From NCBI GenBank assembly GCA_016218105.1, contig JACRET010000032.1:17175-81174 (forward strand): 64,000 nucleotides of DNA, in the 5' to 3' direction. The stretch is from Deltaproteobacteria bacterium (GTDB lineage Bacteria; Desulfobacterota; GWC2-55-46). The notes below the pieces were generated by a model. That model saw only the letters and a program-made list of their open reading frames with translations. It was not told the origin of the DNA and made no database searches. The position numbers were made by a program, and so were the translations under genes. This document shows positions 22,788 through 44,065 of the stretch, one piece after another. How positions within the stretch are numbered: position 1 is the first letter of the stretch; each line of letters starts with the position of its first letter.

Positions 22788-25083
<2,296 letters not shown>

Positions 25084-27403: not shown

Positions 27404-28179
27404 GAAAAGACATGGCACCGGTAGTAGCGATAATACAGGCCAGGATGAGCTCTACAAGGCTGCCTTCGAAGGTCATGAAGACCGTCTGCGGCAATCCCAT
27501 ACTCTGGCACGTGGTCAACCGGCTCAAGGCCTCCAGGCTCATAGAAGATATCATGGTCGCGACAACCACGGACCCTTCCGACGATGTCATCGAAGAGTGG
27601 TGCGCCCTTACAGGCACGGCATCATACAGGGGAAGCCTCGAAGACGTGCTGGACAGGTACTATAACGCGGCCAGGAAGATCGGAGCGAAGACGATAGTCA
27701 GGATAACGGCGGACTGTCCGCTGATCGACCCTGAGCTGGTAGACAAGGTTATCGGGAAATTTTCCGAAGGCGGATACGACCATACAGGGATCGATTCCTC
27801 ATACCCGGACGGGCTTGATGCCGAGGTTTTTTCCTTTGCCGCCCTGGAGAAGGCGCATAAAGAAGCGCGTCTTGCGTCGGAACGGGAGCATGTTACCCCT
27901 TATATCTGGAAAAATCCCGGGTTTTTCAGGCTCTCTTCGATCAAGAACGATAAAGACCTTTCACATCTGCGCTGGACGGTGGATGACGCCAAAGACTTTC
28001 TCCTTGTTACAAGGATATTTGAGGGGATGAGCTCCTTTGACGGGGTTTTTCATATGAATGACATACTTGAGTTTCTGGACAAGAACCCCGGGCTCCTTGA
28101 GATAAATTCGAAGACCATGAGGAATGAGGGGTACGCGAAATCGCTCAAGGAAGACAAGGTAATAGATAAAGCTGTCTAA
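27394..28179 (+). CDS. SpsF-type cytidylyltransferase-family protein (CMP-sugar activation)
   Basis: 261 aa. VAIIQARMSSTRLPSKVM...G.P and RITADCPLIDP resemble the spore-coat SpsF / acylneuraminate cytidylyltransferase-like family. Confidence 0.75.
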   Translation: MPLGKDMAPVVAIIQARMSSTRLPSKVMKTVCGNPILWHVVNRLKASRLIEDIMVATTTDPSDDVIEEWCALTGTASYRGSLEDVLDRYYNAARKIGAKTIVRITADCPLIDPELVDKVIGKFSEGGYDHTGIDSSYPDGLDAEVFSFAALEKAHKEARLASEREHVTPYIWKNPGFFRLSSIKNDKDLSHLRWTVDDAKDFLLVTRIFEGMSSFDGVFHMNDILEFLDKNPGLLEINSKTMRNEGYAKSLKEDKVIDKAV

Positions 28180-28205
28180 AAAGACGACTTAAAAATACGA
28201 GGTGC

Positions 28206-29519
28206 GTGATGAAGGTGCTGACAAATCATTTTCCGGTGTCCGAAGACCTATGGGAGAGGGCGGTAAAACTTATACCCGCCGGGACCCAGACGCTAAGCAA
28301 GGGGCCTGACCAGTTCGTAAGGGGCGTAACGCCCAAATACTTGAAGAGCGGGTCAGGGTGCCATGTATGGGACGCTGACGGCAATGTCTATATCGACTAT
28401 CCGCTTGCATTGGGGCCGATACTCCTCGGGTATGATTATAAGCCTGTCGTTGACGCCGTTATCAATCAGGTGAGGGAGGGCACAACGTTCACGCTGATGC
28501 ATCCTCTGGAGGTAGAGGTCGCCGAGATGCTCGCCTCTGTCATACCCTCAGCCGAAATGGTAAGGTTCGGAAAGAACGGAGCGGATGTAACGAGCGCCGC
28601 TATAAAGGTCGCCAGGGCGTATACTGGAAAAGACCATATCGCGTACTGCGGTTATCACGGCTGCCAGGACTGGTACGCTGTAACCACGCCCAGGAATAAG
28701 GGCATCCCGAAGGTCTTCGGGAGCTTTATGCATTCCTTTGAGTACAATAAGATAGAATCTCTCGAAAGGGCGTTCGCCGAAAACCCGGGCCAGATCGCCT
28801 GTGTCATCATGGAAGTCCCCGGCACGGACCCTGCCGTAGACCACGTAACCGGGAAGAATTTTCTACAATTGGTCAAGGAACTGGCGCACAGGAACGGCGC
28901 TCTTTTCATCATGGATGAAATAGTGACGGGCTTCAGGTACTCGATAGGCGGAGCACAGAAGTTCTACAACGTAACGCCTGACCTTTCGTGTTTCGGCAAG
29001 GGCATGGCTAACGGGTTCGCGATATCGGCCCTGGTCGGGAAGATGGAGTTCATGAAGGAGCTGAACGAGGTCTTTTTCTCGATGACGTATTCAGGCGATA
29101 CCATAGGCCTGGCGGCGGCGAAGGCGACCATTACTGAGCTTCTGAACAAACCTGTCCTCGACCATATCTGGTCGATGGGCGAGATCCTCCATAAGGAGAT
29201 AAATTCGTTTGCCGAGGAAGAGGGCGTCAACTTCAGGATCTCGGGCAAACCGCCGAGGGCGGGACTTTCGATCAAAAATTCAAAGGGCGAGGACGACCTG
29301 CTCCTGAAGAGCATATTCCTTCAGGAGACCATAAAGAGGGGTGTGCTCTTTGGCGGGCCGGTGTTTATAAGCTACTCACACGGATCAGCCGACATAGAAA
29401 AGACCATAGACGCCTCATGCGCCGCCATAGAGAAGCTCAAGGAGGCGGAGGAGAGCGGCAACCCTGCGTCGTTCCTCGAAGGCGAGCCGGTCGGCGTAGT
29501 ATTCAGGCAAAGGACTTAA
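28206..29519 (+). CDS. Class-III (glutamate-1-semialdehyde aminomutase-like) PLP aminotransferase
   Basis: 437 aa. HemL-like layout: GSGCHVWDADGNVYIDY, FIMDEIVTGFR and CFGKGMANGF (PLP lysine). Confidence 0.85.
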   Translation: MMKVLTNHFPVSEDLWERAVKLIPAGTQTLSKGPDQFVRGVTPKYLKSGSGCHVWDADGNVYIDYPLALGPILLGYDYKPVVDAVINQVREGTTFTLMHPLEVEVAEMLASVIPSAEMVRFGKNGADVTSAAIKVARAYTGKDHIAYCGYHGCQDWYAVTTPRNKGIPKVFGSFMHSFEYNKIESLERAFAENPGQIACVIMEVPGTDPAVDHVTGKNFLQLVKELAHRNGALFIMDEIVTGFRYSIGGAQKFYNVTPDLSCFGKGMANGFAISALVGKMEFMKELNEVFFSMTYSGDTIGLAAAKATITELLNKPVLDHIWSMGEILHKEINSFAEEEGVNFRISGKPPRAGLSIKNSKGEDDLLLKSIFLQETIKRGVLFGGPVFISYSHGSADIEKTIDASCAAIEKLKEAEESGNPASFLEGEPVGVVFRQRT

Positions 29520-29543
29520 AAAAAACTCGAAAGGCGCTTCGCG

Positions 29544-30557
29544 ATGATAACTGAATCAAAGGTGCTCGTGGTCGGATGCGGCTCTATAGGGCGCAGGCAC
29601 ATAAAAAATCTCAGATCCCTCGGCATAAAGCATTTCATATTGTGCGATACCAGTCAGGCTATGCTGGAAAGGGCCGCGGAAGGCATGGAAGGGGCCGTAC
29701 TTACCACTGACTTCAAGGAGGCGCTCAAGGAAAATCCTGACGCGGCCGTTATATGCACCCCGTCGTCCATGCACCTTTCCATGGCGACGACGCTTGTGGA
29801 AAAGGGCGTCCACGTGATCATAGAAAAACCGCTCTCGCATAACCTTGAAGGCTTTGACGCCCTTGAGAGGCTGGTGGCTGAAAAAGGGGTCGTAGCGATG
29901 ATGGCCATGTGCTACAGATTCCATCCAGCCTTCCTGCACATAAAAGGGTTATTGGATTCAAAGGCCATAGGGAAGGTATACCATGCCAATTATTACGGCG
30001 GCCATTATCTGCCGGACTGGCACCCCAACGCCGATTACAGGAAGGAATACGCCGCTCAAAAGTCGCTGGGCGGAGGAGTTGTGCTTACGAGCATCCACGG
30101 GCTTGACAATGTAAGGTGGCTTTTCGGCGATGTCGAAGAGGCGCACGCGTTCGTTGACAGGGTAAGCCCCCTTGAGATGGACGTCGAAGACCTGGCGCTC
30201 GGCATATTCAGGATGAAAAACGGCGTCTACGTCAGCTGGCAGACGGATTTCCTCCAGAGGATAAACCAGCACAGGCTGGTTGTCGCCGGCGAGAAAGGGA
30301 CGCTGAGAGCGAACCTCGTTGACGGTTCCATCGAGGTCTACCATATCGAGACGGGCAAGTGGCAGTCCGAAAGGATACTCTTTGAGATAAACACCATGTA
30401 TGTGAAAGAGATGAGGCACTTCCTCGAGTGCATCGAGAATAAGGTGCATCCCTGCGTCGATCTTAGGGAGGGCTATAAAACCCTTAAGCTAGCGCTCGAT
30501 TTGAAAGAGGCCGGTAACCGTATGGACGAGGATGGAGAAGTATGCGTAACGGCGTAA
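29544..30557 (+). CDS. Gfo/Idh/MocA-family oxidoreductase (second copy)
   Basis: 337 aa. VLVVGCGSIGRRH Rossmann segment and VIIEKPLS motif. Confidence 0.8.
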   Translation: MITESKVLVVGCGSIGRRHIKNLRSLGIKHFILCDTSQAMLERAAEGMEGAVLTTDFKEALKENPDAAVICTPSSMHLSMATTLVEKGVHVIIEKPLSHNLEGFDALERLVAEKGVVAMMAMCYRFHPAFLHIKGLLDSKAIGKVYHANYYGGHYLPDWHPNADYRKEYAAQKSLGGGVVLTSIHGLDNVRWLFGDVEEAHAFVDRVSPLEMDVEDLALGIFRMKNGVYVSWQTDFLQRINQHRLVVAGEKGTLRANLVDGSIEVYHIETGKWQSERILFEINTMYVKEMRHFLECIENKVHPCVDLREGYKTLKLALDLKEAGNRMDEDGEVCVTA

Positions 30558-31543
30558 CCTTCTGGACGGAAGGCGGAAGCGTAATAGGGATGGGGCACGT
30601 CGTAAGGTCTATAAATGTAGCCCGCGCGATAAGCTCTCGCGAGATACCCGTACACTTCCTTGTAAACTCCGACAAGGCTGTAACTGAGAGGCTGGAATCC
30701 TTCGGGATGCCTCATATCTCATATACGTTGGAGAAGACTCACGCCTCAAGGCTTACGAAGGATATCGTCGTGATCGACACAAAGAGAGATGTCAGCGGGC
30801 AGATATCCGCCTTAAAGGCCGAGGGAAAAAAGGTGGTACTTATCGACAATTCGCTCTCCGCTGGATACGCGGATATACATATAATGCCGTCGGCGTTTAA
30901 TAAGGGCGACTGTGGGGTCAACCTTTTTGCCGGAAGCCGTTTCGTGATAATCGGCCAGAACTTCCTGAACCATTGCCAGGCTGAGAAGAAGTTTTCGCTT
31001 CCGCTCAAAGTGCTTGTGACAATGGGCGGCGCGGACCCGTTTAAGCTCACCGAGCTTGTCATGGAAGGCCTTAAGGATATAAAAGACATCGAGGTTACGG
31101 TTGTGATAGGCCCTGCCTTTGACCCTGACAGAGGCCTGGCGGAATCTCTTGGACGCGACAATAAGATTGAGGTTTTACCGGACGTAAGGGACATGGCGCC
31201 TGTTATAGACAAGGCCCACATAGCATTTACGGCTGTAGGCACGACGATCTATGAGCTCGCCTATATGGGGGTGCCTTCGATCATCGTCGGCAATTACAGG
31301 ACAGATGAAAGTGATCTAAGGGAGATCGACGCCCTCGGTATCGGTGTCAGCCTAGGCTATTATGCGGATTTGAAGATCGATAAGGTCAAAGAGGCCGTTG
31401 AAAGATTTAAGAAAGCTACGGAATGGGAGTCATTTTCAAAAAATGGCAGGGCCCTTGTGGACGGAAGAGGGGCTTCACGGATCGCGGAGCTTATCGACGC
31501 GCTCTATAACGAAAAAACGGATATCTCGCCTGAAGGGATTTAG
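30542..31543 (+). CDS. pseG: PseG/SpsG-like UDP-sugar hydrolase (GT-B-like)
   Basis: 333 aa. The N-terminus FWTEGGSVIGMGHVVRS matches the GxGHxxR signature of PseG/SpsG. The C-terminal half is GT28-like (VLVTMGGADP). Confidence 0.7.
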   Translation: MRNGVTFWTEGGSVIGMGHVVRSINVARAISSREIPVHFLVNSDKAVTERLESFGMPHISYTLEKTHASRLTKDIVVIDTKRDVSGQISALKAEGKKVVLIDNSLSAGYADIHIMPSAFNKGDCGVNLFAGSRFVIIGQNFLNHCQAEKKFSLPLKVLVTMGGADPFKLTELVMEGLKDIKDIEVTVVIGPAFDPDRGLAESLGRDNKIEVLPDVRDMAPVIDKAHIAFTAVGTTIYELAYMGVPSIIVGNYRTDESDLREIDALGIGVSLGYYADLKIDKVKEAVERFKKATEWESFSKNGRALVDGRGASRIAELIDALYNEKTDISPEGI

Positions 31544-32457
31544 TGATGGCATCCACCGCGCATAATGGAAGGCTTATAGACAGGGCAAACGGATACGGCA
31601 TTATCGAATGCGAGCTTTGCGGCTTTATCCATACCGACCCGATCCCTTCCAAAGAGGAGCTGGATAAGCTCTACAGGGACGAATATTACAAGGAAGAAAA
31701 GCCTTTGTATATAGAACGCACCATTGAAGACCTGAGGTGGTGGGAGGCTGTTTACGACGACCGCTACGATTTCTTTGAAGCGCATCTCCCAGCAGGCAGG
31801 CGGGCGATACTCGACGTGGGCTGCGGCCCCGGATACTTCCTTAAAAGGGGGCTTGAGAGGCGCTGGATGTGCCTTGGCATAGAGCCCTCCAGGCAGGCGT
31901 CTTCGCACGCTATATCTCTGGGGGTTGAGGTGCTCAATACCTTCCTCGACGGGAATCTCGCGAGAGAGATTGGAAGGAAGTTCGACGCGATACATCTGTC
32001 TGAAGTCCTCGAACACGTGCCTGATCCGGCCCGGATACTTGACGCCGCATCCGGCCTTTTAAACGAAGGCGGGTTAATCTGCTGTGTGGTGCCGAACGAC
32101 TACAGCCCCGTGCAAAAGACCCTTAGAGGCAAGCTTGATTACAAGCCTTACTGGCTCGCTCCGCCTCACCATATAAACTATTTCAGCCACGCCTCCCTCT
32201 CGCGTCTTTTTAAAAAGACAGGTTTTGAGGTTATCGGAGAATCATCCATGTTCCCGATAGATTTCTTTCTGCTCATGGGAGACAACTATATCGGCAATGA
32301 CGAGCTGGGGAGGGCAAGCCATTTGAGGAGGAAGAGGCTCGACATAATGCTTGACGAACCTGAGCTTAAAGGGTTCAAGAGAGACATGTACGGGATAATG
32401 GCAAAGCACGGAATCGGACGAGAGGCCGTGATTTACGGTAAAAAGGAGAGTAAGTGA
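31543..32457 (+). CDS. Class-I SAM-dependent methyltransferase with an N-terminal Cys-containing segment
   Basis: 304 aa. ILDVGCGPGYF (motif I) and FDAIHLSEVLEHVPDP. Confidence 0.8.
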   Translation: MMASTAHNGRLIDRANGYGIIECELCGFIHTDPIPSKEELDKLYRDEYYKEEKPLYIERTIEDLRWWEAVYDDRYDFFEAHLPAGRRAILDVGCGPGYFLKRGLERRWMCLGIEPSRQASSHAISLGVEVLNTFLDGNLAREIGRKFDAIHLSEVLEHVPDPARILDAASGLLNEGGLICCVVPNDYSPVQKTLRGKLDYKPYWLAPPHHINYFSHASLSRLFKKTGFEVIGESSMFPIDFFLLMGDNYIGNDELGRASHLRRKRLDIMLDEPELKGFKRDMYGIMAKHGIGREAVIYGKKESK

Positions 32458-33716
32458 TGGACAAGACCCTGATAATGCTTCCTGAATCGTATCCTGTGGC
32501 GAGGCTTCTTTGCGAGTATGTGTTCAAGGAGCACGGCGGAAGTCCTGACCTCCTGATACTCAAGAAACAGAGGGCTGGCTTCGAGCGGATATTAAAGGAA
32601 TTTGATTTTAACAAGGTCTACGAGATAGACGAGGAATATTACGGCAGGATCACCGGGGAAGAATCCGCCGCCTTTATAAGGGAGAGGATGAAGTCGCCTT
32701 ACGATGTCGCTTACTTCCCGTTCAATACCTTCAGGGCCAACGCGTTTCTCTTCGGCTCAGTGATAGCCAGGGAAGTAAAGGCCGTAAACTCGTCCCTCTA
32801 CCACAAAAAAGAGCTGCCGATCGTAAGTTTCAAATTAAGCGGCGGCAAAAGACATGAATCAAACGTGCCGTGGGCCCCGATAATGGATGAGGTCGTAAAG
32901 GCAAAGGACAGGATAGTCTCGATACTTGAGGAAAAGCAGGATTCCTTCGAGGTCTCCGGCGAGCGCCCGACCTTCGGCATCCTCCACGGGTTTGCCCATG
33001 ACCTTGAGATATTCTGCAAATACGCGCTCGGCTCGATGTACTCGATGGACAAGAAGGTCCTTGACATCGGGGGCGGCCTCGGTTTCGGGTCGTTCCTCCT
33101 TTCCAAATTTGCGGATAAGACTTTTTTTGTAGATAGATCGAAAGACGCCGTGAATTTCGTCGAAAAGATGTGGGTCGAGAACTCTCCGAACATCGTTCCT
33201 ATCTGCGGGGACGCGGACAGCCTCTATGCGGCTGAGGCGTCTTTCGACGTGATATTCCTGATGGATGTCATCGAGCACGTGCCTGACCCGCAGGACGTGC
33301 TCAATAAGGTAAATAAACTCCTCAAGAAAGACGGGAAGCTCATTATAACCACGCCGGAAGAGGATTATTACCCCTATAGCGTCTGCCCGAAGGAGCGCTG
33401 GTCCGACCCCGAGGATAAGCTCATAAGCGAGGCGATATGGCCGTGGCATATTCAGGCACTCGGCGAAGAAAAGTTGCTCCCGATGCTGAAGAAGGCCGAT
33501 TTCATGGTTGAGGAGAAGAGCTATACCACATACGTAAAGGGTTATGACTTCCAGAGCGAGCTGAGGAAGGCCAGCGAAAGAGGGGACGACGCCTCCGTGA
33601 TACGCTCGTTGAACGACCTTACAAAATGGGACATAAGGGATTTTGGACTCACAACAGAGAGAGACCCTTACTTTTCAGCCGCGTCATATAATGTCGTAGC
33701 AAGGAAAGCCTCGTAA
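32454..33716 (+). CDS. Class-I SAM-dependent methyltransferase with a ~200-aa N-terminal domain of unknown function
   Basis: 420 aa. VLDIGGGLGFGS (motif I) and FDVIFLMDVIEHVPDP. I recognise nothing in the N-terminal half. Confidence 0.7.
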   Translation: MMDKTLIMLPESYPVARLLCEYVFKEHGGSPDLLILKKQRAGFERILKEFDFNKVYEIDEEYYGRITGEESAAFIRERMKSPYDVAYFPFNTFRANAFLFGSVIAREVKAVNSSLYHKKELPIVSFKLSGGKRHESNVPWAPIMDEVVKAKDRIVSILEEKQDSFEVSGERPTFGILHGFAHDLEIFCKYALGSMYSMDKKVLDIGGGLGFGSFLLSKFADKTFFVDRSKDAVNFVEKMWVENSPNIVPICGDADSLYAAEASFDVIFLMDVIEHVPDPQDVLNKVNKLLKKDGKLIITTPEEDYYPYSVCPKERWSDPEDKLISEAIWPWHIQALGEEKLLPMLKKADFMVEEKSYTTYVKGYDFQSELRKASERGDDASVIRSLNDLTKWDIRDFGLTTERDPYFSAASYNVVARKAS

Positions 33717-33717
33717 A

Positions 33718-34812
33718 ATGCCGATCAAGACCAAAGCCGCTCTGCTCGAAGCAAAGAATCAGCCCTTGACCGTGAAGGAGATATCCCTTAATCCCCCGAA
33801 GGACAGGGAAGTCCTCGTCAAGGTCGAGATGGCCGGTCTTTGCAGGAGCGATTTGAACGCCATCGTCGGACATACCAGATACGACATGCCTCTGGTGCTT
33901 GGGCATGAGGGCGCAGGGACGGTTGTTGATATTGGCCCGAACGTAAAGTCTCTTAAAAAAGGCGACCGCGTGGTCTTAAGCTGGGCCGCATTTTGCGGTG
34001 ATTGCTTTTTCTGCAATAAAGGCCTTACGCACCAGTGCCATACGGTAGCGTGGCCGAGGGGCAAGGGGTTGCTGCCTGACTGGACGACAAGGTTCAGCGA
34101 TAACGGAAAAGAGGTCTTCCATTTCAACGGGGTTTCGTCATTCAGCGAATACACGGTCGTATATGAGACTGGCTGCGTCCCCATAGGAAACGATATCTCC
34201 TTTGATGTGGCGTCGGTTGTCGGTTGTTCGGTAGTAACAGGCATAGGCGCAGTCTATAACACCGCGAATGTCCCGGAGGGAGCAACCTCTCTGGTGGTCG
34301 GCGGAGGCAACGTCGGCCTTAGCATCATCCAGGCGCTTAAGATAAAAGGCGCCGGGGTCATAATCGCCGTAGACCCGAACAAAGAGAAATGGCATGCGAT
34401 AGCGGAGGCAGGCGCGGACATCGTCCTTCCGGAGATATCCATGGATGAGATTAATAAGGCGACCGGCGGCTTCGGGGTAGATTACGCCTTCGACGGCGTG
34501 GCCACCGAAGAGACCCTCAATCAATCCCTTGCCGCCGTTCGGAGGGCAGGGACGGTGGTTATGGTCGGTTCTCCCCATCCGCTCGCCAAGTATGCCTTGA
34601 GCCCGATCGAGTTCCATCTTGAGAAAAAAATAATCGGCTCACTGTACGGCTCAAGCAACCCCGGAAGGGATATACCGAGGCTTTTGGATTTTTATAGAAA
34701 TGGACAACTGAAGCTCGACGGGTTTACCACGGCAAGCTTCAGCCTTGACGATATCAACAACGCCATCAAGGCGCTTGAAGACAGCGGCGGAAAATACACG
34801 ATAACTTTTTAA
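33718..34812 (+). CDS. Zinc-dependent alcohol dehydrogenase family protein
   Basis: 364 aa. CRSDL, GHEGAGTVVDIG, structural-zinc cysteines CGDCFFCNKGLTHQC and VVGGGNVGL. Confidence 0.85.
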   Translation: MPIKTKAALLEAKNQPLTVKEISLNPPKDREVLVKVEMAGLCRSDLNAIVGHTRYDMPLVLGHEGAGTVVDIGPNVKSLKKGDRVVLSWAAFCGDCFFCNKGLTHQCHTVAWPRGKGLLPDWTTRFSDNGKEVFHFNGVSSFSEYTVVYETGCVPIGNDISFDVASVVGCSVVTGIGAVYNTANVPEGATSLVVGGGNVGLSIIQALKIKGAGVIIAVDPNKEKWHAIAEAGADIVLPEISMDEINKATGGFGVDYAFDGVATEETLNQSLAAVRRAGTVVMVGSPHPLAKYALSPIEFHLEKKIIGSLYGSSNPGRDIPRLLDFYRNGQLKLDGFTTASFSLDDINNAIKALEDSGGKYTITF

Positions 34813-34841
34813 TATAACTGAGTCCAAAGGAGGGTTTTGAG

Positions 34842-35537
34842 ATGAATATATTCCTTGATACGGCGAATATCGAAGAGATCAAGAAGGCAAAGAGGTGGGG
34901 CGTTTTAAGAGGCCTTACAACAAACCCTTCCATAGTGGCGAGAGAGGGCAAGGAATTCCTCGATCTCGCTACTGAGCTCTGCGAACTCGTAAGCCCGTTC
35001 CCCGTAAGCCTTGAGGTCGTAGACAGGACAGGCGAGGGCATGGCTGAGCAGGCAAGGGCTATCTCCGCTCTCGCGCGCAATGTCGTCGTAAAGCTCCCGA
35101 CAAATCCGGAAGGCCTCGCGGCCCTGAACCTCCTTAAGGGAGAGGGCGTAAAGACAAACCTTACGCTGATATTTTCCACTTCGCAGGCGATACTCGCGAT
35201 GAGCGGCGGCGCTACTTACATAAGCCCGTTTATCGGAAGGCTTGAGGACAGGGGTTATGAAGGCATGGGGCTCGTGCGCGATATTATGAACATCCATTCC
35301 GCCTACAATTTCAAGACCGAAGTCATCGCCGCGTCCATACGCGACCCGCATCAGGTCATCGAGATAGCTAAGACAGGCGCGCATATCGTGACGCTGCCCT
35401 TTGCCGTATTGGAGAAGATGCTCCTTAACACCATGACCGACGCCGACCTCGATAAATTCCTTAACGACTGGGAAAAGGTACCGGGCAGGGAGAACGCTTT
35501 TAAAGGCACAAGGAGGCTTGAAAAAGTTGGCGCATAA
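34842..35537 (+). CDS. Fructose-6-phosphate aldolase / TalC-type transaldolase-family class-I aldolase
   Basis: 231 aa. MNIFLDTANIEEIKKAKRWGVLRGLTTNPSI, VVVKLP (Schiff-base Lys context) and ATYISPFIGRLED. Confidence 0.88.
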   Translation: MNIFLDTANIEEIKKAKRWGVLRGLTTNPSIVAREGKEFLDLATELCELVSPFPVSLEVVDRTGEGMAEQARAISALARNVVVKLPTNPEGLAALNLLKGEGVKTNLTLIFSTSQAILAMSGGATYISPFIGRLEDRGYEGMGLVRDIMNIHSAYNFKTEVIAASIRDPHQVIEIAKTGAHIVTLPFAVLEKMLLNTMTDADLDKFLNDWEKVPGRENAFKGTRRLEKVGA

Positions 35538-36561
35538 TTTCAGGGCGGCCATCTTCAAAGGGCCGGGAGAATTGGAGATAAATGACGTAACCGCGCCTGA
35601 GCTTAACCCGGGCGAAGTCCTCGTAAGGGTAAAGGCCTGCGGCATCTGCGGAAGCGACCTTAACATCTTTAAAAGGAACCCGCCGATCCCCAAATTCTGG
35701 GGAGGCCATGAGATAAGCGGCGAAGTCGCCGGGCTCGGCCCCGGTGTTGATGGGTTTAAGACAGGAGAGAAGGTCAGTGTCGCTCCTTTGATACCATGCG
35801 GCGAGTGCGAACAGTGCAGGGCCGGTCTTGAGAATATCTGCTCGAAGTGCCTCTTTATAAGTTTTAACGTAAGGGGCGGTTTTTCGGAGTATGTTACTGC
35901 GCCGAAAGAGAATATATACAGATTGCCAGAGAGCGCGGCCCTCGATGAAGCCGTGCTCCTTGAGCCTTTGGCGGACGTTATTCATTCGTTCAAACGGGCG
36001 GGAGGCGTACAAGGCAAGCGCGTAGTGGTGGTAGGAAGCGGAACCATCGGGCTACTGACGGTAAACGCCGCGAAGGCGCTCGGCGCTTTAAAGGCGCTTA
36101 GCGTAGGTAAATATCCTCATCAGAGGTCCAAGGCCATGGAGCTTGGCGCTGACGGCGTCTTCGACCCCGCCGGGGGCGGGCTGGAAGAGGCCATACTAGA
36201 GAAGTTCGAAGGCACGAAGGCTGACCTCGTATTCGAGACGGTCGGCGGCTACGAGAGCGAGTCGATAACCCAGGCGATAAACATACTCCGTCCCGGCGGG
36301 ACCATAATCCTCTCGGGCGTCCATTATAAGACCCCGAACATGAACCTGAAGAATCTGACCGAGAGAGAGATCGAAGTAAAAGGTACACAGAGGTACAGGA
36401 GAGAGGACTTCGCCGAGGCGGTAGAGCTATTTGGCAGGGGCGTCATAAAAGCCGGCCTTCTGGTGACCCACAGAGTATCACTGGACAGGATAATGGAAGG
36501 ATACTCTATAGCTTTTGACAAGCATGCGAACAAGGCCGTAAAGGTGGTAGTATGTCCGTAA
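35518..36561 (+). CDS. Zinc-dependent dehydrogenase (threonine/sorbitol dehydrogenase-like)
   Basis: 347 aa. CGICGSDL, GHEISGEV, CGECEQCRAGLENIC and VVVGSGTIGL. TTG start is uncertain. Confidence 0.85.
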   Translation: MKKLAHNFRAAIFKGPGELEINDVTAPELNPGEVLVRVKACGICGSDLNIFKRNPPIPKFWGGHEISGEVAGLGPGVDGFKTGEKVSVAPLIPCGECEQCRAGLENICSKCLFISFNVRGGFSEYVTAPKENIYRLPESAALDEAVLLEPLADVIHSFKRAGGVQGKRVVVVGSGTIGLLTVNAAKALGALKALSVGKYPHQRSKAMELGADGVFDPAGGGLEEAILEKFEGTKADLVFETVGGYESESITQAINILRPGGTIILSGVHYKTPNMNLKNLTEREIEVKGTQRYRREDFAEAVELFGRGVIKAGLLVTHRVSLDRIMEGYSIAFDKHANKAVKVVVCP

Positions 36562-37778
36562 AGGGAAAGACCATACTGATAATCTCAGGCGGCGTAGAGG
36601 CTGTCCCGATAATAGCCGAGGCAAAGGCGATGGGCCTTAATGTCGCTGTTTCCGACGGGAACGCCGCGGCCCCCGGTTTCGATCTCGCCGACTTCAGGCT
36701 TGTGGCGAGCACGTATGAGCCGGAAAAGACGGCTGAGCTTGCCAGGGATCTCAGCGCCAGGCATAGGATCGACGGAGTAATGGCCGCCGCGGCAGATGTG
36801 CCGTGCACGGTCGCGGCGGTGGCTGAGGCGCTGGGGCTGCCGTCCACAGGACATGACGCGGCCAGGATTGTCTCCGATAAATTTCTTATGAAAGAGATTT
36901 TTAAAAACCACGGTGTGCCGATACCGTGGTTTGGCCTTGTCGAGAGCGGAGCGCATTTAAAGGTCATCCTCCAGGCCAGAAACGTTGTAATAAAACCGGT
37001 AGACAGCCGCGGTGCCAGGGGGGTTATAAGGGTCACGCCCGGAGTCGACCCTGAGTGGGCATATTCTGAATCCCTGAAGCATTCGCCTTCGGGCAGGGTA
37101 ATGGCTGAGGAGTGGGTTTCAGGCCGCCAGATCAGCACGGAGTCTATCGTGACCGAGGACGGTGTGATGACGCCGGGCCTCTCCGACAGGAATTACCAAT
37201 ATCTGGAGAGGTTCGCGCCTTTCGTAATAGAAGACGGCGGGGATCTGCCAGCCCTCCTTACGGATGATGAGAGGAAAGCCATAGATACGGTCATCTCCTG
37301 CGTGGCGGATTCGCTCTCTATCAGGAGAGGCACCATAAAGGGTGATATTGTAATGGGCAAGGACGGCCCTGTTGTGATCGAGGTGGCTATTCGCCTCTCC
37401 GGCGGATATTTCTGCAGCCATACGATACCCCTTTCCACAGGCGCTAACTTCGTGGAGGCGGCGATATTGCTCGCGCTTGGCGAGAAGATAGACATAAACG
37501 AATACAGGCCCAGGTTTTCCAGAAGCGTCTGCCAGAGGTTCATATTCCCGGAACCCGGCACTATCACCAGGGTGGAGGTCCCGGAAATAAAGGATGAAAA
37601 CCTGATGATGATGCGGGTCTATGTGAAGGAAGGGGACAAGGTCGTTAAAATGACGAGCCATCCATGCAGGGCAGGCATGGCGATAACGTCAGGCGACACC
37701 AGGGAAGAAGCTCAGAAGACGATGGCGAGGGCTCTGTCAAAGATCATAGTTGAGGTCTCACCGGCCATGACGGTTTAA
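36552..37778 (+). CDS. ATP-grasp family carboxylate-amine ligase
   Basis: 408 aa. A pre-ATP-grasp N-terminus (KTILIISGG), then KPVDSRGARGV and EEWVSGRQISTES, typical of ATP-grasp cores. Confidence 0.75.
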   Translation: MSVKGKTILIISGGVEAVPIIAEAKAMGLNVAVSDGNAAAPGFDLADFRLVASTYEPEKTAELARDLSARHRIDGVMAAAADVPCTVAAVAEALGLPSTGHDAARIVSDKFLMKEIFKNHGVPIPWFGLVESGAHLKVILQARNVVIKPVDSRGARGVIRVTPGVDPEWAYSESLKHSPSGRVMAEEWVSGRQISTESIVTEDGVMTPGLSDRNYQYLERFAPFVIEDGGDLPALLTDDERKAIDTVISCVADSLSIRRGTIKGDIVMGKDGPVVIEVAIRLSGGYFCSHTIPLSTGANFVEAAILLALGEKIDINEYRPRFSRSVCQRFIFPEPGTITRVEVPEIKDENLMMMRVYVKEGDKVVKMTSHPCRAGMAITSGDTREEAQKTMARALSKIIVEVSPAMTV

Positions 37779-37806
37779 CACAGTCTACTTGAAAGAGGTA
37801 CCCCGG

Positions 37807-39312
37807 ATGAAAAAGATACTGCTTATACAACCGAATATGAGAGTAGCCACATCGGGCCAGAGGATAGTCTATCCGCCGATCGGCATCATGTATCTCGCGG
37901 CGGTTCTTGAAAAGAAAGGCTATAATGTCCAGATCCTCGACTGTCAGACAGAAGGGCTCGACAAGGATGCCGAAGTCATAGACGGCTACGTGGAAGTAGG
38001 TATCCCCCTGGCGGAGATACGCGAAAAGATCGCCGCCTTCGGCCCCGACCTTGTAGGCATAACCTGCAACTTCTCCGTAATGGTTCCGCATATGAACGAA
38101 ACAGCAAGGCTCGTCAAGGAGATGAGCCCTGCCGTCCCGGTCGTGGCAGGCGGCAATCACCCCACATCGCTTCCCGAAGAGGTGATGGAGAACGGGGCCA
38201 TAGATTACATCATCATGGGCGAGGGCGAGATATCCTTCCCGATGCTTTTGGAGTCCATACAGGCGGGAAGGCCTCCTGAAAATGTCCCCGGCCTTGTCTG
38301 GAGAAAAGAAGGGGCGCTGGTCAAGAACGCGATGGGCTCTTTTATACATGATCTTGACAGCCTCCCTTATCCGGCATGGCATCTTTTTCCGTACGAGAAG
38401 TACAGCCGCCATTACCAGCCGCGGACAGTCACCTGGGGAGAGCCGCAGGCCATGCCATCGGTTATGACCACCAGGGGGTGCGCCGGAGGGTGCGTATTCT
38501 GCTCGGTGCACAAGACAATGGGGAGAAAATTCAGGGCCCGTAAGCTAGATGAGGTCTTCAAGGAGATAAGGTTCCTTGTAGATACTTATAAGATAAAGAA
38601 GTTGATGATCATAGACGACAACTTCACCCATAACAAAAACAGGGCAAAGGAATTCTGCGACGAGTTCAAGAAGCAGGGGCTCGATATCGAGCTTCACTTC
38701 ATGGTTTTGGCGCTCTGGTGCATGGATGAGGAGCTGATAGATAAACTCAAGTCCATCGGATGCACTTCGATGGGATTCGCCATAGAATCAGGCGTGCAGG
38801 AGATACTCACGAATGTCGTAAAAAAGCCCTTGAAGCTGCCGCGCGCCATGGAGCTTCTCAGGTACGCCAGGTCAAAGGGGATACATTTGACGGGGACTTT
38901 TGTCATAGGGTTTCCCGGCGAAACGAAGAAGGACATCAGGAGAAGCCTCTACATGGCCAACTACAGCGGCCTGTTCGACAGCCGCGAGATATATATCGCG
39001 ACCCCGCTCCCCGGTTCCGAGCTTTTTGAGAAGTGCAGGAAGGAAGGGCTGCTCGCCGACGGGTTCTCGTACAGCAAGGTCGAGGTCGTCAAGCCTAATA
39101 TAAGGACGAAGGATTTCTCTCCCGGATTCATTCTTACCATACTTGAGGCTGACAGGACGCACCACCTCATCAAGGCAAACCCGAAGAGGCTTGTCAGATG
39201 CGTCCGTGACGTCTGGAAGAGGAAGAGGGATTATTTCTTTCAGGTGTTGTTTGAGACCTTCAAGATGTTCGTTAAATACGACTTCCTTAAGATAAGGGAA
39301 CAGTACCCCTGA
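37807..39312 (+). CDS. B12-binding-domain radical SAM enzyme
   Basis: 501 aa from ATG 37807 (MKKILLIQPN). An N-terminal cobalamin-binding-like domain is followed by the CxxxCxxC cluster motif in TTRGCAGGCVFCSV. Confidence 0.85.
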   Translation: MKKILLIQPNMRVATSGQRIVYPPIGIMYLAAVLEKKGYNVQILDCQTEGLDKDAEVIDGYVEVGIPLAEIREKIAAFGPDLVGITCNFSVMVPHMNETARLVKEMSPAVPVVAGGNHPTSLPEEVMENGAIDYIIMGEGEISFPMLLESIQAGRPPENVPGLVWRKEGALVKNAMGSFIHDLDSLPYPAWHLFPYEKYSRHYQPRTVTWGEPQAMPSVMTTRGCAGGCVFCSVHKTMGRKFRARKLDEVFKEIRFLVDTYKIKKLMIIDDNFTHNKNRAKEFCDEFKKQGLDIELHFMVLALWCMDEELIDKLKSIGCTSMGFAIESGVQEILTNVVKKPLKLPRAMELLRYARSKGIHLTGTFVIGFPGETKKDIRRSLYMANYSGLFDSREIYIATPLPGSELFEKCRKEGLLADGFSYSKVEVVKPNIRTKDFSPGFILTILEADRTHHLIKANPKRLVRCVRDVWKRKRDYFFQVLFETFKMFVKYDFLKIREQYP

Positions 39313-41334: not shown

Positions 41335-43221
41335 ATGTCGATTTTTGATAAAAACCTTTTGAGCATAGGTCTCAAAGACAAGGCTCTCTCCGACAGGCTG
41401 CGGTCTCTCGACAAATGGGTTGAGACGGAGGAGGCCAAAAACAGGGAGCATACCTTCAAGTATGGCGGGATTTATTTTCACAGCCGTTACGACCCGGCAA
41501 AAGAGGCCTCTGTGCAGGCCGAGGAGATAGCGTCAAAAAAAACTGATTGGGTGCTGCTGTTCGGGCTCGGGTGCGGGTACCTGCTTAAGGCCCTTCTGGA
41601 AAAAGGCCAGAAAAAGGTCATGGTCTTTGAGCCTTCTGAGGAGATACTCGCCGGGGTGCTCCGCAATATTGACCTCTCGGAAGAGCTTTCGCTGGACGGT
41701 GTATTTCTCCTTACGGACATGGTTGCGTTCATAAGCAATCTACGGTCCTCCGCCGAGGGGTTTGACAACCTTTTGTGCTTCAGCCCCACCCCTTACAGGT
41801 TGACATTTCCCGCCGAGCTTAGAGATTTCACGAACAGGGTGAATAACGCGCACACGACGAGCAAGGTCGGGATAAAGACAGACCTTGTGTCAAGGCTTGA
41901 CTGGATAGAGAACTATCTGGAGAACGTCAGGCATTTTCCGGAAACTCCGCTCGTGGACGATCTGCGGGACAGGTTCAAGGGCAAGCCTATGGTGATAGTC
42001 GGGGCAGGGCCTTCATTAAAGAAGAACGCGCATCTTTTGCGCGAGTTCAAGGGAAAGGCCGTTATTATGGCCGCGGTGACGGCCTACAAGCCGCTGCTCA
42101 AGTTCGGCGTTATACCGGATTTTGTGATAGCCTCGGAGAGGGTGGACCTGCCTGAATATTTTACATCAGGGGATGAGGACAGGCAGACAAGGCTTATCCT
42201 TGCGGAGGTGTCCCACCCGAAGATGTTTGAAAGAGAAGTCCTGGGAAAACTGGTATACTTCTCCCCGTCGATATCTTTCAGCCGCGAGCATGCCAGGCTC
42301 TGGGGCAGCTCATACTTCCCGAATATGGGCGGCAGCGTGACTACAGCCGCTCTTGATATGGGGATCATGTTGGGTTGCAGCCCGATAGTCTTTATAGGTC
42401 AGGACCTCTGTTTCGGGGACAACGAGACCCATGTCGGAGGAGGCGTGTACGTTGCACAGAACGTCAGGATAGACAAGGAGAAGGGGCTCATCACGATAGA
42501 GGACGAGTACATAAACGACAAGCAGACGTATGTTTATGATCTGCAGTGGCTCAAGGGCCTTAATGGCGCTCAGGTGCCCAGCAAATACGACTGGACTACC
42601 TTCCATCAGTGGTTTGAAGCCTATATGCTCAGCCTTAGAAGGTCAGGCTCCCCTGTCAAGGTGATAAATGCCACTGAAGGCGGCGCATATATAGAGGGGA
42701 TGGAGCATTCCACGCTTAAAGAGGTCCTTGCCGGATATATCAGGGACGGTCTTGACATAGACAAGATAGTGAGAGAGGCTAAAGAGGCGCGTACGAAGAC
42801 GGATTATCCGGCCCTGATCGAATCGTTTACGCAGATGAAAAAGAGCCTTGGCGTTATCCGGAAGACCGCGCAAGGGATATTCAAAGAGGTGAGGGGCGCA
42901 AGGACGGAGCTTAAGAGAAATGGGCTTACCCTGGGACTTAAAAAGCATGCCGACAGGATAAAGGCTCTTGAGGAGGACGTCTTCAGGGAATCCGAAAACG
43001 CCCGCTTCATCTGGGAGGCGCTCATTGAAAATACTTATAAGCTGAAGCAGTACCTTCGCGATGAGGGTGAGACGTCAGCGACCGGATTTGAGAAAGACCT
43101 TGATGCCATCGAGGCCTCGTACAAGAGGATCGATGAGATCTGCCAGAGATTTGGGCCGAAGCTTGAGGGGGCCGCGTCTGTTCTGGGGAGCCGTGAGAGC
43201 TTGACAAAAAAGGCGTTGTAG
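41335..43221 (+). CDS. maf: Motility-associated factor (Maf; DUF115/MptE-like) putative flagellin nonulosonate glycosyltransferase
   Basis: 628 aa. MVIVGAGPSLKKN, IPDFVIASERVD and GGSVTTAALDMGIMLGCSPIVFIGQDLCF form the typical Maf core. Starts 1 nt after the preceding gene ends. Confidence 0.8.
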   Translation: MSIFDKNLLSIGLKDKALSDRLRSLDKWVETEEAKNREHTFKYGGIYFHSRYDPAKEASVQAEEIASKKTDWVLLFGLGCGYLLKALLEKGQKKVMVFEPSEEILAGVLRNIDLSEELSLDGVFLLTDMVAFISNLRSSAEGFDNLLCFSPTPYRLTFPAELRDFTNRVNNAHTTSKVGIKTDLVSRLDWIENYLENVRHFPETPLVDDLRDRFKGKPMVIVGAGPSLKKNAHLLREFKGKAVIMAAVTAYKPLLKFGVIPDFVIASERVDLPEYFTSGDEDRQTRLILAEVSHPKMFEREVLGKLVYFSPSISFSREHARLWGSSYFPNMGGSVTTAALDMGIMLGCSPIVFIGQDLCFGDNETHVGGGVYVAQNVRIDKEKGLITIEDEYINDKQTYVYDLQWLKGLNGAQVPSKYDWTTFHQWFEAYMLSLRRSGSPVKVINATEGGAYIEGMEHSTLKEVLAGYIRDGLDIDKIVREAKEARTKTDYPALIESFTQMKKSLGVIRKTAQGIFKEVRGARTELKRNGLTLGLKKHADRIKALEEDVFRESENARFIWEALIENTYKLKQYLRDEGETSATGFEKDLDAIEASYKRIDEICQRFGPKLEGAASVLGSRESLTKKAL

Positions 43222-43301: not shown

Positions 43302-43895
43302 ATGCCCACAGTGCATCTGGATGATATAAAGGTAGAATTCGAGGATAAAGAGAAGAGCGCCACCGTAGGCGAGCTTGTTGACGCACTTGAAAAAGAGCTG
43401 ATGAGCATCAAGAGGTTTATCATGGAGATCTCTATAGACGGCGAGGATGTGCCTGAGTGGAGGGGTAGCGCCGCGATGTCGAAGAAGATATCGGTACACG
43501 GAGAGATCAGGCTCAAGACCGCATCTATCGAAGATATGGCTTCGGTCGGCCTTGAGACGGTAAAGGAATATATAAATGTGATAAAGGACAATATGGACGC
43601 TTGCGTTAGGGATTTAAGGGTTGGCTCTGAAAAGACCGCCGATACAGCGTTCCTCTCGATATTCGAGGGTGTCGTAGAGGTAGTAAAGACCATGGACGCC
43701 TTGAGCCATGGGACTGCGAGGTATAAGATGGATCTTTTTAAAAAAAACCCTCTCGAGTATTATGTGGCGCTCCATCAGAAACTGGAAACAATTAAAAATA
43801 TTAAGCTTTCGGGAGATACGGTCCTGCTGGCTGATGTGCTCGAGTATGAGCTTAAGCCGCTCCTGGAAGAGATAGAGGAAAATATTTTCAATTAA
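43302..43895 (+). CDS. Hypothetical acidic protein between maf and the flagellin gene
   Basis: 197 aa with a GGGAGAGG RBS. No recognisable motif. Confidence 0.55.
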   Translation: MPTVHLDDIKVEFEDKEKSATVGELVDALEKELMSIKRFIMEISIDGEDVPEWRGSAAMSKKISVHGEIRLKTASIEDMASVGLETVKEYINVIKDNMDACVRDLRVGSEKTADTAFLSIFEGVVEVVKTMDALSHGTARYKMDLFKKNPLEYYVALHQKLETIKNIKLSGDTVLLADVLEYELKPLLEEIEENIFN

Positions 43896-43946: not shown

Positions 43947-44024
43947 GGGTAGTAAGAGGCAGAAAGCGAATCAGGCCGAAAAGGAGGGTTGGAAAAGGCT
44001 GAAGCTTGAAACCTCAAAAAAACA

Positions 44025-44038
44025 CGGCAAGGATGCCG
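44025..44038 (+). promoter_or_regulatory. Candidate CsrA-binding hairpin in the flagellin 5'UTR
   Basis: CGGCA-AGGA-TGCCG presents GGA in a tetraloop. A second GGA lies inside the Shine-Dalgarno sequence ACGGAGGGT (44053-44061). Confidence 0.5.
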
Positions 44039-44065
44039 AATAAAAAACACTACGGAGGGTACACC

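Follow-up and report, generated by a model that had tools for sequence, protein, structure and literature searches.

A probable tailoring cassette of the transaldolase type in a PseH-less flagellin nonulosonate operon is a variant of a widespread ATP-grasp/GH57-like module

A block of seven genes within a flagellin glycosylation operon

We analysed a stretch of 64,000 nucleotides from a Deltaproteobacteria bacterium (assembly GCA_016218105.1, contig JACRET010000032.1, positions 17,175 to 81,174), hereafter called the window, and focused on a block of genes at 31543-39312. An earlier note made from the letters alone had described this block as seven contiguous, mostly overlapping genes for the decoration of a flagellin sugar, and all seven open reading frames (ORFs) were indeed found on the + strand. 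The first gene encodes a class I S-adenosylmethionine (SAM) methyltransferase (MT1, 31543-32457; Methyltransf_23, E 7e-26) and the second a two-domain methyltransferase of 420 aa (MT2, 32454-33716), in which aa 198-350 make up the class I SAM methyltransferase domain. They are followed by a zinc alcohol dehydrogenase (ADH) resembling class I/III primary-alcohol dehydrogenases (ADH1, 33718-34812; ADH_N and ADH_zinc_N), a small (subfamily-5) transaldolase (34842-35537; TAL_FSA, E 1.6e-52) and a second zinc ADH, which the family profiles place near polyol dehydrogenases, ketose reductases and threonine dehydrogenases (ADH2, 35518-36561). The last two genes encode an ATP-grasp carboxylate-amine ligase of 408 aa similar to L-amino-acid ligases (LAL) and PurD (36552-37778; ATP-grasp_3, ATPgrasp_N and LAL_C2) and a class B, B12-binding radical SAM enzyme (37789-39312; B12-binding and Radical_SAM). 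These family calls are Pfam and NCBIfam profile matches. For six of the genes strong matches upheld the families named in the earlier note, while the aldolase had to be relabelled, as described below. Since the homologues of the radical SAM enzyme are 501 aa long, the ATG at 37807, which yields a protein of this length, is probably the true start of its gene.

The gaps between neighbouring genes of the block ranged from -20 to +29 nt. In the stretch from 21.5 to 41.4 kb, sites resembling promoters or terminators did not exceed the frequency seen after the sequence was shuffled. One terminator-like site (22562-22578) was located directly 5' of the PseB gene, past FliW. Because all the genes lie on the + strand, with such short gaps and without an excess of terminator-like sites, we read the block as part of a single operon extending from PseB as far as flagellin. 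At 31.5-39 kb the real genes were overlapped by antisense ORFs (150-260 aa) without homology support; one of these ORFs (34905-35693, - strand) exceeded the transaldolase gene in length.

Through neighbourhood look-ups and a genome scan we collected related loci, about 80 different ones, of which nearly all came from metagenome-assembled genomes (MAGs); they are designated here by L numbers. No Shewanella locus was among those returned by the genome scan. Synteny of the block was established by a tblastn matrix and ORF clustering. The order MT1-MT2-ADH-Tal-ADH-ATP-grasp-rSAM-GH57-Maf-DUF8042-flagellin (Tal, transaldolase; rSAM, radical SAM enzyme) was found in 15 other MAG loci of Deltaproteobacteria/Thermodesulfobacteriota, with identities of 47-89% (L003, L004, L006-L010 and L012-L019). 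As the gene order is kept in these 15 loci, the block is not a product of chance. In every one of them the block was followed on its 3' side by the GH57-like and Maf genes and then by flagellin, as far as the contig reached. Orthologous blocks could have been found mainly in capsule or lipopolysaccharide (LPS) loci; all 15 were flagellar where the contigs extended far enough, and the linkage to Maf and flagellin that the first description had assumed was therefore sustained. The functional unit extends past 39312, because the GH57-like gene that follows at 39318-41333 is the steadiest partner of the ATP-grasp gene.

The aldolase is predicted to be a small transaldolase

The aldolase had been labelled as a member of the fructose-6-phosphate aldolases (FSA/TalC). 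Its Schiff-base lysine is K84, in the motif VVVKLP. Among solved or known enzymes, the closest was the Thermotoga maritima transaldolase (Tal; 1VPX, 237 bits, E 1.4e-69), followed by Thermoplasma acidophilum Tal (3S0C, 199 bits), the Bacillus subtilis enzyme (186 bits) and Escherichia coli FSA (about 126 bits). The protein also scored 258.5 bits against TIGR00875, whose cut-off is 245.95. The active-site residues D6, E58, K84, T108 and F130 could all be aligned, and the phosphate-binding R133 and R167 were intact. FSA enzymes have Gln59 and Tyr131 (E. coli numbering) where transaldolases have Glu and Phe; the roles of these residues reportedly derive from work on TalB F178Y and TacTal E60Q/F132Y. 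In the window, E58 and F130 match the T. acidophilum and T. maritima transaldolases. The FSA reading was ruled out by Glu58/Phe130 together with the ranking of the PDB matches, so that the previous label had to be dropped, and the residue signature points to a true small transaldolase. As such, it should move a dihydroxyacetone unit between sugar phosphates, without the free donors used by FSA.

The two dehydrogenases flanking the transaldolase belong to different types. ADH1 scored 281 bits against TIGR03989, under the cut-off of this family, and 216 bits against human ADH5. ADH2 matched ketose reductase 1E3J (166 bits) and further Tdh, sorbitol dehydrogenase and galactitol-1-P 5-dehydrogenase, which bears out its initial description as a threonine/sorbitol-dehydrogenase-like enzyme. 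Enzymes like ADH2 interconvert a 2-ketone and the secondary alcohol adjoining a terminal CH2OH. By their families, both types would be suited to handling a ketose produced by the aldolase.

Methyltransferases, ATP-grasp ligase and radical SAM enzyme

Partner genes were counted in the 73 loci that contain the ATP-grasp family of the window. MT1 homologues were present in 28 of them and, consequently, MT1 is not specific to the transaldolase cassette. MT2 behaved differently in its distribution: full-length MT2 had about 28 homologues in a collection of 5.8 billion proteins, and the MT2 and B12 radical SAM genes occurred together in 17 out of 17 loci, including the transketolase-type L046 and L081. 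These two enzymes may work as a pair. The N-terminal region of MT2, about 195 aa, had no Pfam match, in line with the domain of about 200 aa previously reported as unrecognised. In the AlphaFold2 (AF2) model (pLDDT 90) this region folds into a Rossmann-like alpha/beta domain. Among 1.84 billion proteins this domain matched about 20 representative clusters (50% identity), and nearly all the matches were methyltransferases of 400-430 aa with an identical architecture, to which the domain is thus almost confined. In the whole-chain fold search the methyltransferase domain dominated the result, with no more than a faint sign (TM 0.35) that the N-terminal domain is similar to the first, vestigial domain seen in phosphoethanolamine methyltransferases that have two domains.

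The ATP-grasp protein scored 52.8 bits against PF18603 (cut-off 29.4) and 41.9 bits against PF02655, and it had more than 2000 homologues. Its nearest solved structures were an L-amino-acid ligase (3VOT, E 1.3e-17) and a PurD-like protein (4DIM, E 2e-13). The fold and the LAL C-terminal domain 2 identify it as a predicted LAL-like carboxylate-amine ligase. In L-amino-acid ligases and PurD a small carboxylate is activated and then attacked by an amine, which in the case of PurD sits on a sugar.

As anticipated from the CAGGCVFC motif, the last protein of the block is a cobalamin-binding radical SAM enzyme: it matched PF02310 (92.8 bits) and PF04055 (77.3 bits), and the motif occupies residues 231-238, with C231, C235 and C238 as the CxxxCxxC cysteines. 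Its best NCBIfam family was NF038361, the Sden_1168 P-methyltransferases, with 266.7 bits against a cut-off of 575; all the other families scored lower and no NCBIfam equivalog cut-off was reached. PDB matches included 9CCB, AprD4, TsrM and TokK. These profiles identify the protein as a class B enzyme, probably a methyltransferase.

The block is a rare version of a widespread module

The GH57-like gene accompanied the ATP-grasp gene in 61 out of 73 loci across many phyla, usually immediately next to it, and is its steadiest partner. The frequencies of other partners were 46 of the 73 loci for a PseG-like protein, 37 for NeuB, 36 for a short-chain dehydrogenase/reductase (SDR), 31 for a class-III aminotransferase and 30 for a cytidylyltransferase. 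An enzyme module for making or breaking C-C bonds was found beside the ATP-grasp gene in 55/73 loci, and methyltransferases in 53/73. The C-C enzyme is a transaldolase in the window; elsewhere, it is a split transketolase (TK; 21/73), an AHAS-like thiamine diphosphate (ThDP) enzyme (15/73) or a ComDE-like split ThDP decarboxylase accompanied by an iron-dependent ADH (Fe-ADH; 4/73). The generic order of the genes is [PseB PseC] NeuB, cytidylyltransferase, aminotransferase, an aldo-keto reductase (AKR) or a GFO/IDH/MocA (GFO) oxidoreductase in some loci, PseG-like, methyltransferases, a thiamine pyrophosphate (TPP) enzyme or TK where present, SDR, ATP-grasp and GH57-like. In the clade of the window, ADH-Tal-ADH stands in place of the TPP or TK gene and the SDR gene, MT2 comes in addition, and the gene for the B12 radical SAM enzyme lies between those for ATP-grasp and the GH57-like protein. 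The module thus consists of a constant core, ATP-grasp plus GH57-like, and of a variable C-C enzyme, one or more reductases and methyltransferases. The block in the window is the lineage-specific, rare transaldolase version of this widespread module; the gene combination, which the earlier note did not recognise as a described system, is thus not entirely new.

Flagellar genes were nearby in 24 of the 73 loci, 16 of which were transaldolase-type. The remaining 49 had none nearby, which places the ATP-grasp/GH57-like core mostly outside flagellar surroundings. The non-flagellar loci were of the Wzx/Wzy/glycosyltransferase type and came from Acidobacteriota, Solirubrobacteraceae, Binatia, Dehalococcoidia, a Methanothrix MAG and others. 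The loci L057, L065, L072 and L036 carried the fourth cassette type, with two Fe-ADHs and the split ComDE-like ThDP decarboxylase; where the contig reached, a longer NeuB gene lay directly upstream of their ATP-grasp gene, and L065 had two NeuB genes.

The GH57-like protein has 671 aa and contains the (beta/alpha)7 catalytic domain of GH57 (PF03065, 60.7 bits), while no NCBIfam model matched it. The top Foldseek match of its AF2 model (pLDDT 91, pTM 0.90) was the GH57 4-alpha-glucanotransferase of Thermococcus litoralis (1K1X, E 3e-24), and GH38 mannosidases were matched with a TM of about 0.65. In a profile alignment, E123 aligned with the T. litoralis nucleophile E123, and D221 with the acid/base D214; both residues were invariant in 35 homologues. 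The fold clan includes deacetylases. A de-N-acetylase was not our first choice for this protein, given the invariant GH57 Glu/Asp pair and the whole-chain fold matches to GH57/GH38. From model and alignment, it has the appearance of a functional glycosidase or transglycosylase of the retaining type, and its neighbours, nonulosonate genes and ATP-grasp, argue for a substrate other than alpha-glucan.

Cassette exchange and phylogeny of the ligase

The exchange of cassettes was most clearly seen in L075. Its flanks were 57-77% identical to those of the window (aminotransferase 77%, NeuB 70%, flagellin 77%, GH57 59%), closer than the flanks of many loci having the same cassette as the window. At the position of the block, L075 carries MT409-TPP-SDR-ATP-grasp, and its ATP-grasp is 48% identical to that of the window, whereas more distant transaldolase-type loci reach 54-60%. 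L059 resembles L075 in this respect: in both loci the flanks are similar to those of the window, the whole transaldolase set is missing and a different cassette takes its place. In a neighbour-joining tree the ATP-grasps of transaldolase cassettes formed one clade, and those of L075 and L059 fell in the TPP clade. The ligases are therefore grouped by cassette type and not by flanking genes. Since the ATP-grasps of transaldolase cassettes form a single clade, ligase specificity would follow the product of the cassette. TK-type and TPP-type ATP-grasps were intermixed in the same tree, with L027 (TPP) sister to L001, L028 and L032 (TK), and this intermixing appears to count against a strict rule of one substrate per cassette.

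Genomic context of the block

The window is a flagellar and chemotaxis region. Upstream of the operon we found CheR, CheA, CheB, CheW, a methyl-accepting chemotaxis protein, FlgF/G/A/H/I/J, FlgN, FlgK, FlgL and FliW, and a 635-aa HEAT-repeat protein is encoded at 10-1917, directly 5' of CheR. All the genes of the operon are on the + strand. Its first glycosylation gene is PseB (22872..23888), an inverting UDP-N-acetylglucosamine 4,6-dehydratase with 522.5 bits against TIGR03589 (cut-off 407.75). It is followed by the PseC aminotransferase, which makes the 4-amino sugar (23845..25083; TIGR03588 498.2 bits, cut-off 423.5), and by a GFO oxidoreductase (25322..26359; Pfam GFO_IDH_MocA), homologues of which occupy the corresponding place in L068 and L075. 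The next gene (26360..27403) encodes a nonulosonate synthase of the NeuB family, with NeuB and SAF domains, which is PseI-like but divergent: it scored 318.9 against TIGR03586 (PseI; cut-off 340.25), 355.4 against the NeuB model (cut-off 399.65) and 284.6 bits against Pfam NeuB. Then come a CTP_transf_3 cytidylyltransferase that is not a canonical PseF (27394..28179; Pfam E 9e-32; TIGR03584 29.9, cut-off 205.7), a class-III aminotransferase similar to glutamate-1-semialdehyde (GSA) aminomutase (28206..29519; NF004856 417 bits, cut-off 486), a second, sugar dehydrogenase-like GFO oxidoreductase (29544..30557; Pfam and NCBIfam) and a PseG-like GT-B protein (30542..31543; TIGR03590 104 bits, cut-off 153.55; Glyco_tran_28_C match). 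The cytidylyltransferase, class-III aminotransferase and GFO genes (elsewhere with AKR) at 27394-30557, beside the PseG-like gene, recur as a set in about 30 of the 73 loci; in most loci without the transaldolase cassette an aldo-keto reductase replaces the second GFO oxidoreductase.

Downstream of the GH57-like gene, the operon continues with Maf (motility accessory factor), a putative flagellin nonulosonate transferase (41335..43221; MptE-like E 4.5e-37, Maf_flag10_N and a PseD-like domain). A small DUF8042-like protein of 197 aa follows (43302..43895), whose homologues carry PF26154 and whose window copy has no Pfam match; this ORF lay between Maf and flagellin in the related flagellar loci reaching that far. 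The last gene is a short flagellin of 296 aa (44006..44896; Flagellin_N and Flagellin_C), the presumed glycosylation target. With PseB and PseC above their equivalog cut-offs and Maf and flagellin downstream, the block belongs to a flagellin nonulosonate operon, as had been proposed. The proposal that this operon lacks PseH was also confirmed within the sequence covered: no GNAT was present among the scanned ORFs of the operon or of the 64-kb window, although a copy elsewhere in the genome is possible. The sole acyltransferase-like ORF of the window encodes a left-handed beta-helix protein (52350-52868); it adjoins a TolQ-like gene some 8 kb further downstream, outside the operon. Likewise, no recurrent acetyltransferase was found in the related loci. 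Near the end of the window lies a gene for a glycosyltransferase-like membrane protein of the PMT_2 family (61137-63044).

Comparison with known systems

In the literature search the seven-gene combination was not described, and the matches were unrelated apart from a paper on Shewanella oneidensis, a gene list on phase variation in Campylobacter and Legionella gene tables. By gene sizes and order, the closest studied system would be sfmABCDE of S. oneidensis MR-1. Its five products are, in turn, NeuB-like (290 aa), a TPP enzyme of 581 aa, an SDR of 255 aa, a methyltransferase of 395 aa and an ATP-grasp protein of 412 aa; the operon adjoins Maf and is required for flagellin modification (PMC3765264). 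This strain has PseB and PseC without clear PseH, PseG, PseI or PseF, and its flagellin carries a 274-Da mono-N-acetyl sugar resembling pseudaminic acid (Pse) plus a C9H16O7 unit (236-264 Da) that bears up to two extra methyls and gives O-methyl signals by nuclear magnetic resonance (NMR) (PMC3765264). In sizes and order, the sfm genes match the TPP-type cassettes around relatives of the window ATP-grasp. Common to sfm and the window are an ATP-grasp protein of about 410 aa (408 in the window) and a methyltransferase of about 400 aa (420 in MT2) next to Maf, within a PseH-less Pse context in which PseB and PseC are present and the NeuB-like synthase is divergent. In contrast, sfm has a ThDP (IlvB-like) enzyme and an SDR of the 3-oxoacyl-ACP-reductase type where the window has a transaldolase and two zinc ADHs; TPP plus SDR is the arrangement of sister loci such as L075. 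Relative to sfm, the window adds MT1 and the B12 radical SAM enzyme, and it has a GH57-like gene, none being reported for sfm in PMC3765264. By analogy, the S. oneidensis data would support the general picture of a PseH-less nonulosonate to which a methylated polyhydroxy unit is added. The part of the earlier note that foresaw a methylated decoration is favoured by this look-alike, with its mono-N-acetylated Pse and O-methylated extra unit; a simple acyl group joined early by an amide is not, as the outer unit is labile.

The canonical PseBCHGIF pathway with Maf/PseD/PseE of Campylobacter and Helicobacter resembles the window in PseB and PseC, which are at equivalog level, and in the presence of a NeuB-family synthase, CTP_transf_3, PseG-like protein, Maf and flagellin in one operon. 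It differs in that the window has no PseH, its PseG-, PseI- and PseF-like proteins are under the family cut-offs, and it adds a class-III aminotransferase, two GFO oxidoreductases, ATP-grasp, the GH57-like gene and the seven-gene cassette. A more distant ATP-grasp (28% identity) within an otherwise near-canonical Pse cluster is that of L087, from plasmid pAT1 of Aureibacter tunicatorum (NZ_AP025306.1, 553705-574877). It lies inside a Wzx/glycosyltransferase locus, in the order pseB-pseC-pseF-ATP-grasp-hypothetical protein (26% identical to the window PseG-like protein)-acyltransferase-pseI.

Plasmid pDCAR1 of Solidesulfovibrio carbinolicus DSM 3852, a cultured member of the same phylum, carries a further relative (L086; NZ_CP026539.1, 81538-106761, module at about 86-99 kb). 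Identities to the window were 40% for the MT1 homologue, 42% for ATP-grasp, 35% for the GH57-like protein, 60% for PseB and 43% for PseC. Its genes are a short NeuB, pseF, PseG-like, a methyltransferase, FabG, a split transketolase, a 415-aa methyltransferase, ATP-grasp, GH57-like, pseB and pseC. It differs from the window in its cassette type (transketolase plus FabG) and its canonical pseF, and it is known from annotation alone. No class-III aminotransferase was annotated within the 25-kb stretch examined. Several radical SAM genes were seen near the pDCAR1 module.

In the HS:2 capsule of Campylobacter jejuni, an ATP-grasp-type amidoligase and an aminotransferase acting on a triose phosphate, encoded in Cj1435-Cj1438, are reported to decorate a sugar acid. 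In that system the carboxylate is the glucuronate of the capsule and, unlike the window, it is not known to have a transaldolase, radical SAM or GH57-like gene. Hydroxy-acid N-acyl groups, some of them O-methylated, do exist on Pse, a likeness in glycan chemistry and not in genes: the C. jejuni glycan reportedly contains a di-O-methylglyceroyl Pse. Tannerella forsythia, in turn, makes Pse5Am7Gra, an N-glyceroyl Pse whose responsible enzymes are stated as not known (PMC5378307).

The O-antigen cluster of the Pse type in Legionella pneumophila serogroup 6/12 (Sg6/12) contains PseG, a GSA-aminomutase-like aminotransferase, an acylneuraminate cytidylyltransferase, an aryl-alcohol-dehydrogenase-like oxidoreductase, DegT and CapD (PMC3694923). 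The PseG/aminotransferase/cytidylyltransferase/oxidoreductase set is common to this cluster and to the window. As differences, the Legionella cluster is an LPS locus with GNAT, other acetyltransferases and acetimidoyl genes, and its gene table lists no ATP-grasp, GH57-like gene or C-C cassette (PMC3694923). Since the set occurs in L. pneumophila Sg6 without a listed ATP-grasp, the cytidylyltransferase, aminotransferase, oxidoreductase and PseG genes belong to the sugar core and not to the cassette.

A candidate pathway and its alternatives

The sequences show which genes and families are present, their active-site signatures and synteny, the exchange of cassettes within the module and the linkage to flagellar genes; from these we infer a scheme in which all the substrates, the order of the steps and the amide linkage are deduced. 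The block would be the tailoring cassette of a PseH-less, Pse-type flagellin operon, in which a methylated, sugar-derived unit is joined through an amide to an amine of the nonulosonate. We put this reading forward tentatively, and rate its chances as somewhat short of even. The transaldolase would transfer a dihydroxyacetone unit from fructose-6-P or sedoheptulose-7-P to an aldehyde acceptor. The new 2-keto group would then be reduced by the polyol-dehydrogenase-like ADH2, while the primary-ADH-like ADH1 would set the oxidation state of the terminal carbon towards a hydroxy-acid. MT1 and MT2 would O-methylate the unit, and the B12 radical SAM enzyme, the constant companion of MT2, could methylate an unactivated carbon. 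The ATP-grasp ligase would form the amide between the finished unit and an amino group of the nonulosonate, either the one installed by PseC and left free without PseH or one that the class-III aminotransferase and the GFO oxidoreductase would introduce together, and Maf would finally pass the decorated sugar on to flagellin. Which acid is made, which amine accepts it and what the radical SAM enzyme acts on are pure conjecture. The acyl-decoration pathway of the earlier note is, on the whole, plausible and partly supported: a dedicated tailoring unit, the PseH-less operon and the link to Maf and flagellin were retained, the FSA label was given up, and the S. oneidensis data speak against the simple early amide.

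Several observations weigh against this scheme. The transaldolase aligns closely with housekeeping transaldolases, as indicated by the 237 bits with T. maritima Tal, and nothing in its active site is abnormal. It might do no more than provide an ordinary sugar phosphate. The block has neither an aldehyde dehydrogenase, for carboxylate formation, nor a phosphatase, for phosphate removal. As the radical SAM enzyme is under every equivalog cut-off, methyl transfer by it is putative, and the GH57-like protein keeps the catalytic residues of glycosidases yet has no role in the scheme. The likeness to S. oneidensis Sfm is one of gene sizes and order. Moreover, the 236-264 Da unit of S. oneidensis is easily lost in the ion source, while the 274-Da unit retains a basic group (PMC3765264). 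If the two systems are analogous, this lability and the basic group would fit better with a glycosidic or ester link and a free amine than with an amide. Likewise, the S. oneidensis ATP-grasp mutant is still partly modified and motile, whereas the TPP, SDR and methyltransferase mutants are fully unmodified (PMC3765264). By the same analogy, the cassette enzymes may act on the core sugar and not only on an acyl donor. The labile unit, the inner basic group and the partly modified mutant together speak against the early attachment of a simple acyl group through an amide, as first envisaged.

The same results make room for a different product, which we consider possible though doubtful. The transaldolase (elsewhere a transketolase or ThDP enzyme) and the reductases would extend or branch a sugar by a C2/C3 ketol unit, which would then be reduced and methylated. 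The outcome would be a higher-carbon or branched sugar, or a glycosidically attached second unit, possibly made with the help of the GH57-like protein, and the ATP-grasp would carry out a separate, peripheral acylation, for example with an amino acid. The labile outer unit of S. oneidensis is indeed sugar-like: C9H16O7 (free form C9H18O8) equals, by our own arithmetic, a 6-deoxyhexose plus C3H6O3 or a heptose plus C2H4O. The complete loss of modification in the TPP, SDR and methyltransferase mutants, which the ATP-grasp mutant does not share, points in the same direction. So do the TPP plus SDR pairs of the module, which resemble the branched-sugar enzymes YerE/YerF, and the catalytic Glu and Asp of retaining glycosidases/transglycosylases kept in the GH57-like protein. 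The occurrence of TK- and TPP-type cassettes beside nearly related ATP-grasps (L027 versus L001/L028/L032) also suggests a ligase substrate independent of the C-C enzyme. However, the ATP-grasps of transaldolase cassettes form a clade of their own, apart from L075 despite its closer flanks, as would be expected if the ligase recognised the product of the cassette. In addition, the transaldolase keeps residues for binding sugar phosphates, whereas nonulosonate intermediates are nucleotide or free sugars, and the only glycosyltransferases of the window operon are Maf and the PseG-like protein.

Less probable, and in our opinion unlikely, is that the transaldolase and zinc ADHs make a ketose or polyol phosphate, which the class-III aminotransferase converts into an amino-polyol for amidation of a glycan carboxylate, such as C1 of the nonulosonate, by the ATP-grasp ligase. 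The presence in one operon of a class-III aminotransferase, sugar-phosphate enzymes and ATP-grasp agrees with this possibility. There is also a precedent in C. jejuni, where, according to work reportedly from the Raushel laboratory, Cj1437 makes serinol phosphate from dihydroxyacetone phosphate and Cj1438 performs the ATP-dependent amidation of glucuronate. On the other hand, the aminotransferase is outside the swappable cassette and accompanies the genes for the cytidylyltransferase, the oxidoreductase and the PseG-like protein, and it is also present in the L. pneumophila Sg6 cluster, whose gene table has no ATP-grasp. No phosphatase is present, and we know of no nonulosonate C1 amide.

That the transaldolase and ADHs lie in the operon by chance, as housekeeping genes of a block that is not one functional unit, is very improbable. 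The close match to T. maritima transaldolase (E 1.4e-69) and the canonical active site would be expected of such an enzyme; nevertheless, ADH-Tal-ADH flanked by MT2 and ATP-grasp was kept in order in the 15 loci, down to about 50% identity and with overlapping or near-touching frames, and L075 and L059, which have similar flanks, lack the set as a whole and carry another cassette instead. Finally, a phosphonate or phosphinate decoration, in which the B12 radical SAM enzyme would act as a P-methyltransferase and the block would build a P-methylated group, was considered because of the NF038361 match and of some distant loci that pair ComDE-like split ThDP decarboxylases with Fe-ADHs, presumably akin to phosphonopyruvate decarboxylase and phosphonoacetaldehyde reductase, but it is extremely improbable: the score is far under the cut-off, no phosphoenolpyruvate (PEP) mutase or other phosphonate gene was found among the scanned ORFs of at least 150 aa in the 64-kb window, and the P-methyl reading of the enzyme was set aside on account of the low family score and of the PEP mutase missing from the window.

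Implications for flagellin and cell-surface glycans

The cassette of the window is a new version of the flagellin nonulosonate glycosylation islands that carry tailoring genes, and the general ATP-grasp/GH57-like module with its exchangeable C-C cassettes is the result of greater interest. Enzymes that add non-acetyl groups to pseudaminic and legionaminic acids are largely not known, as stated for T. forsythia (PMC5378307), and nonulosonate decorations affect flagellar assembly, immune recognition and phage/host interactions. It is conceivable, although we regard it as a rather speculative proposal, that the ATP-grasp/GH57-like pair and the swappable ketol-transfer cassettes constitute a widespread, unrecognised modular pathway, in which C-C enzymes of the pentose-phosphate type build or extend chains on PseH-less nonulosonates. 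If so, flagella and cell-surface polysaccharides in more than ten phyla would bear a family of new methylated nonulosonates, either higher-carbon or polyhydroxyacyl in type. The window would represent the transaldolase/B12-radical-SAM branch of the pathway, and each cassette type would be expected to yield its own side group. The module would also account for the odd sfm operon of S. oneidensis as a member of a larger family, and S. carbinolicus DSM 3852, as a cultured carrier of the transketolase-type module on pDCAR1, offers an experimental entry point. If confirmed, the pathway would give a transaldolase a biosynthetic role and B12 radical SAM enzymes a new class of substrates, and its genes would serve as sequence markers for predicting glycan diversity from genomes.

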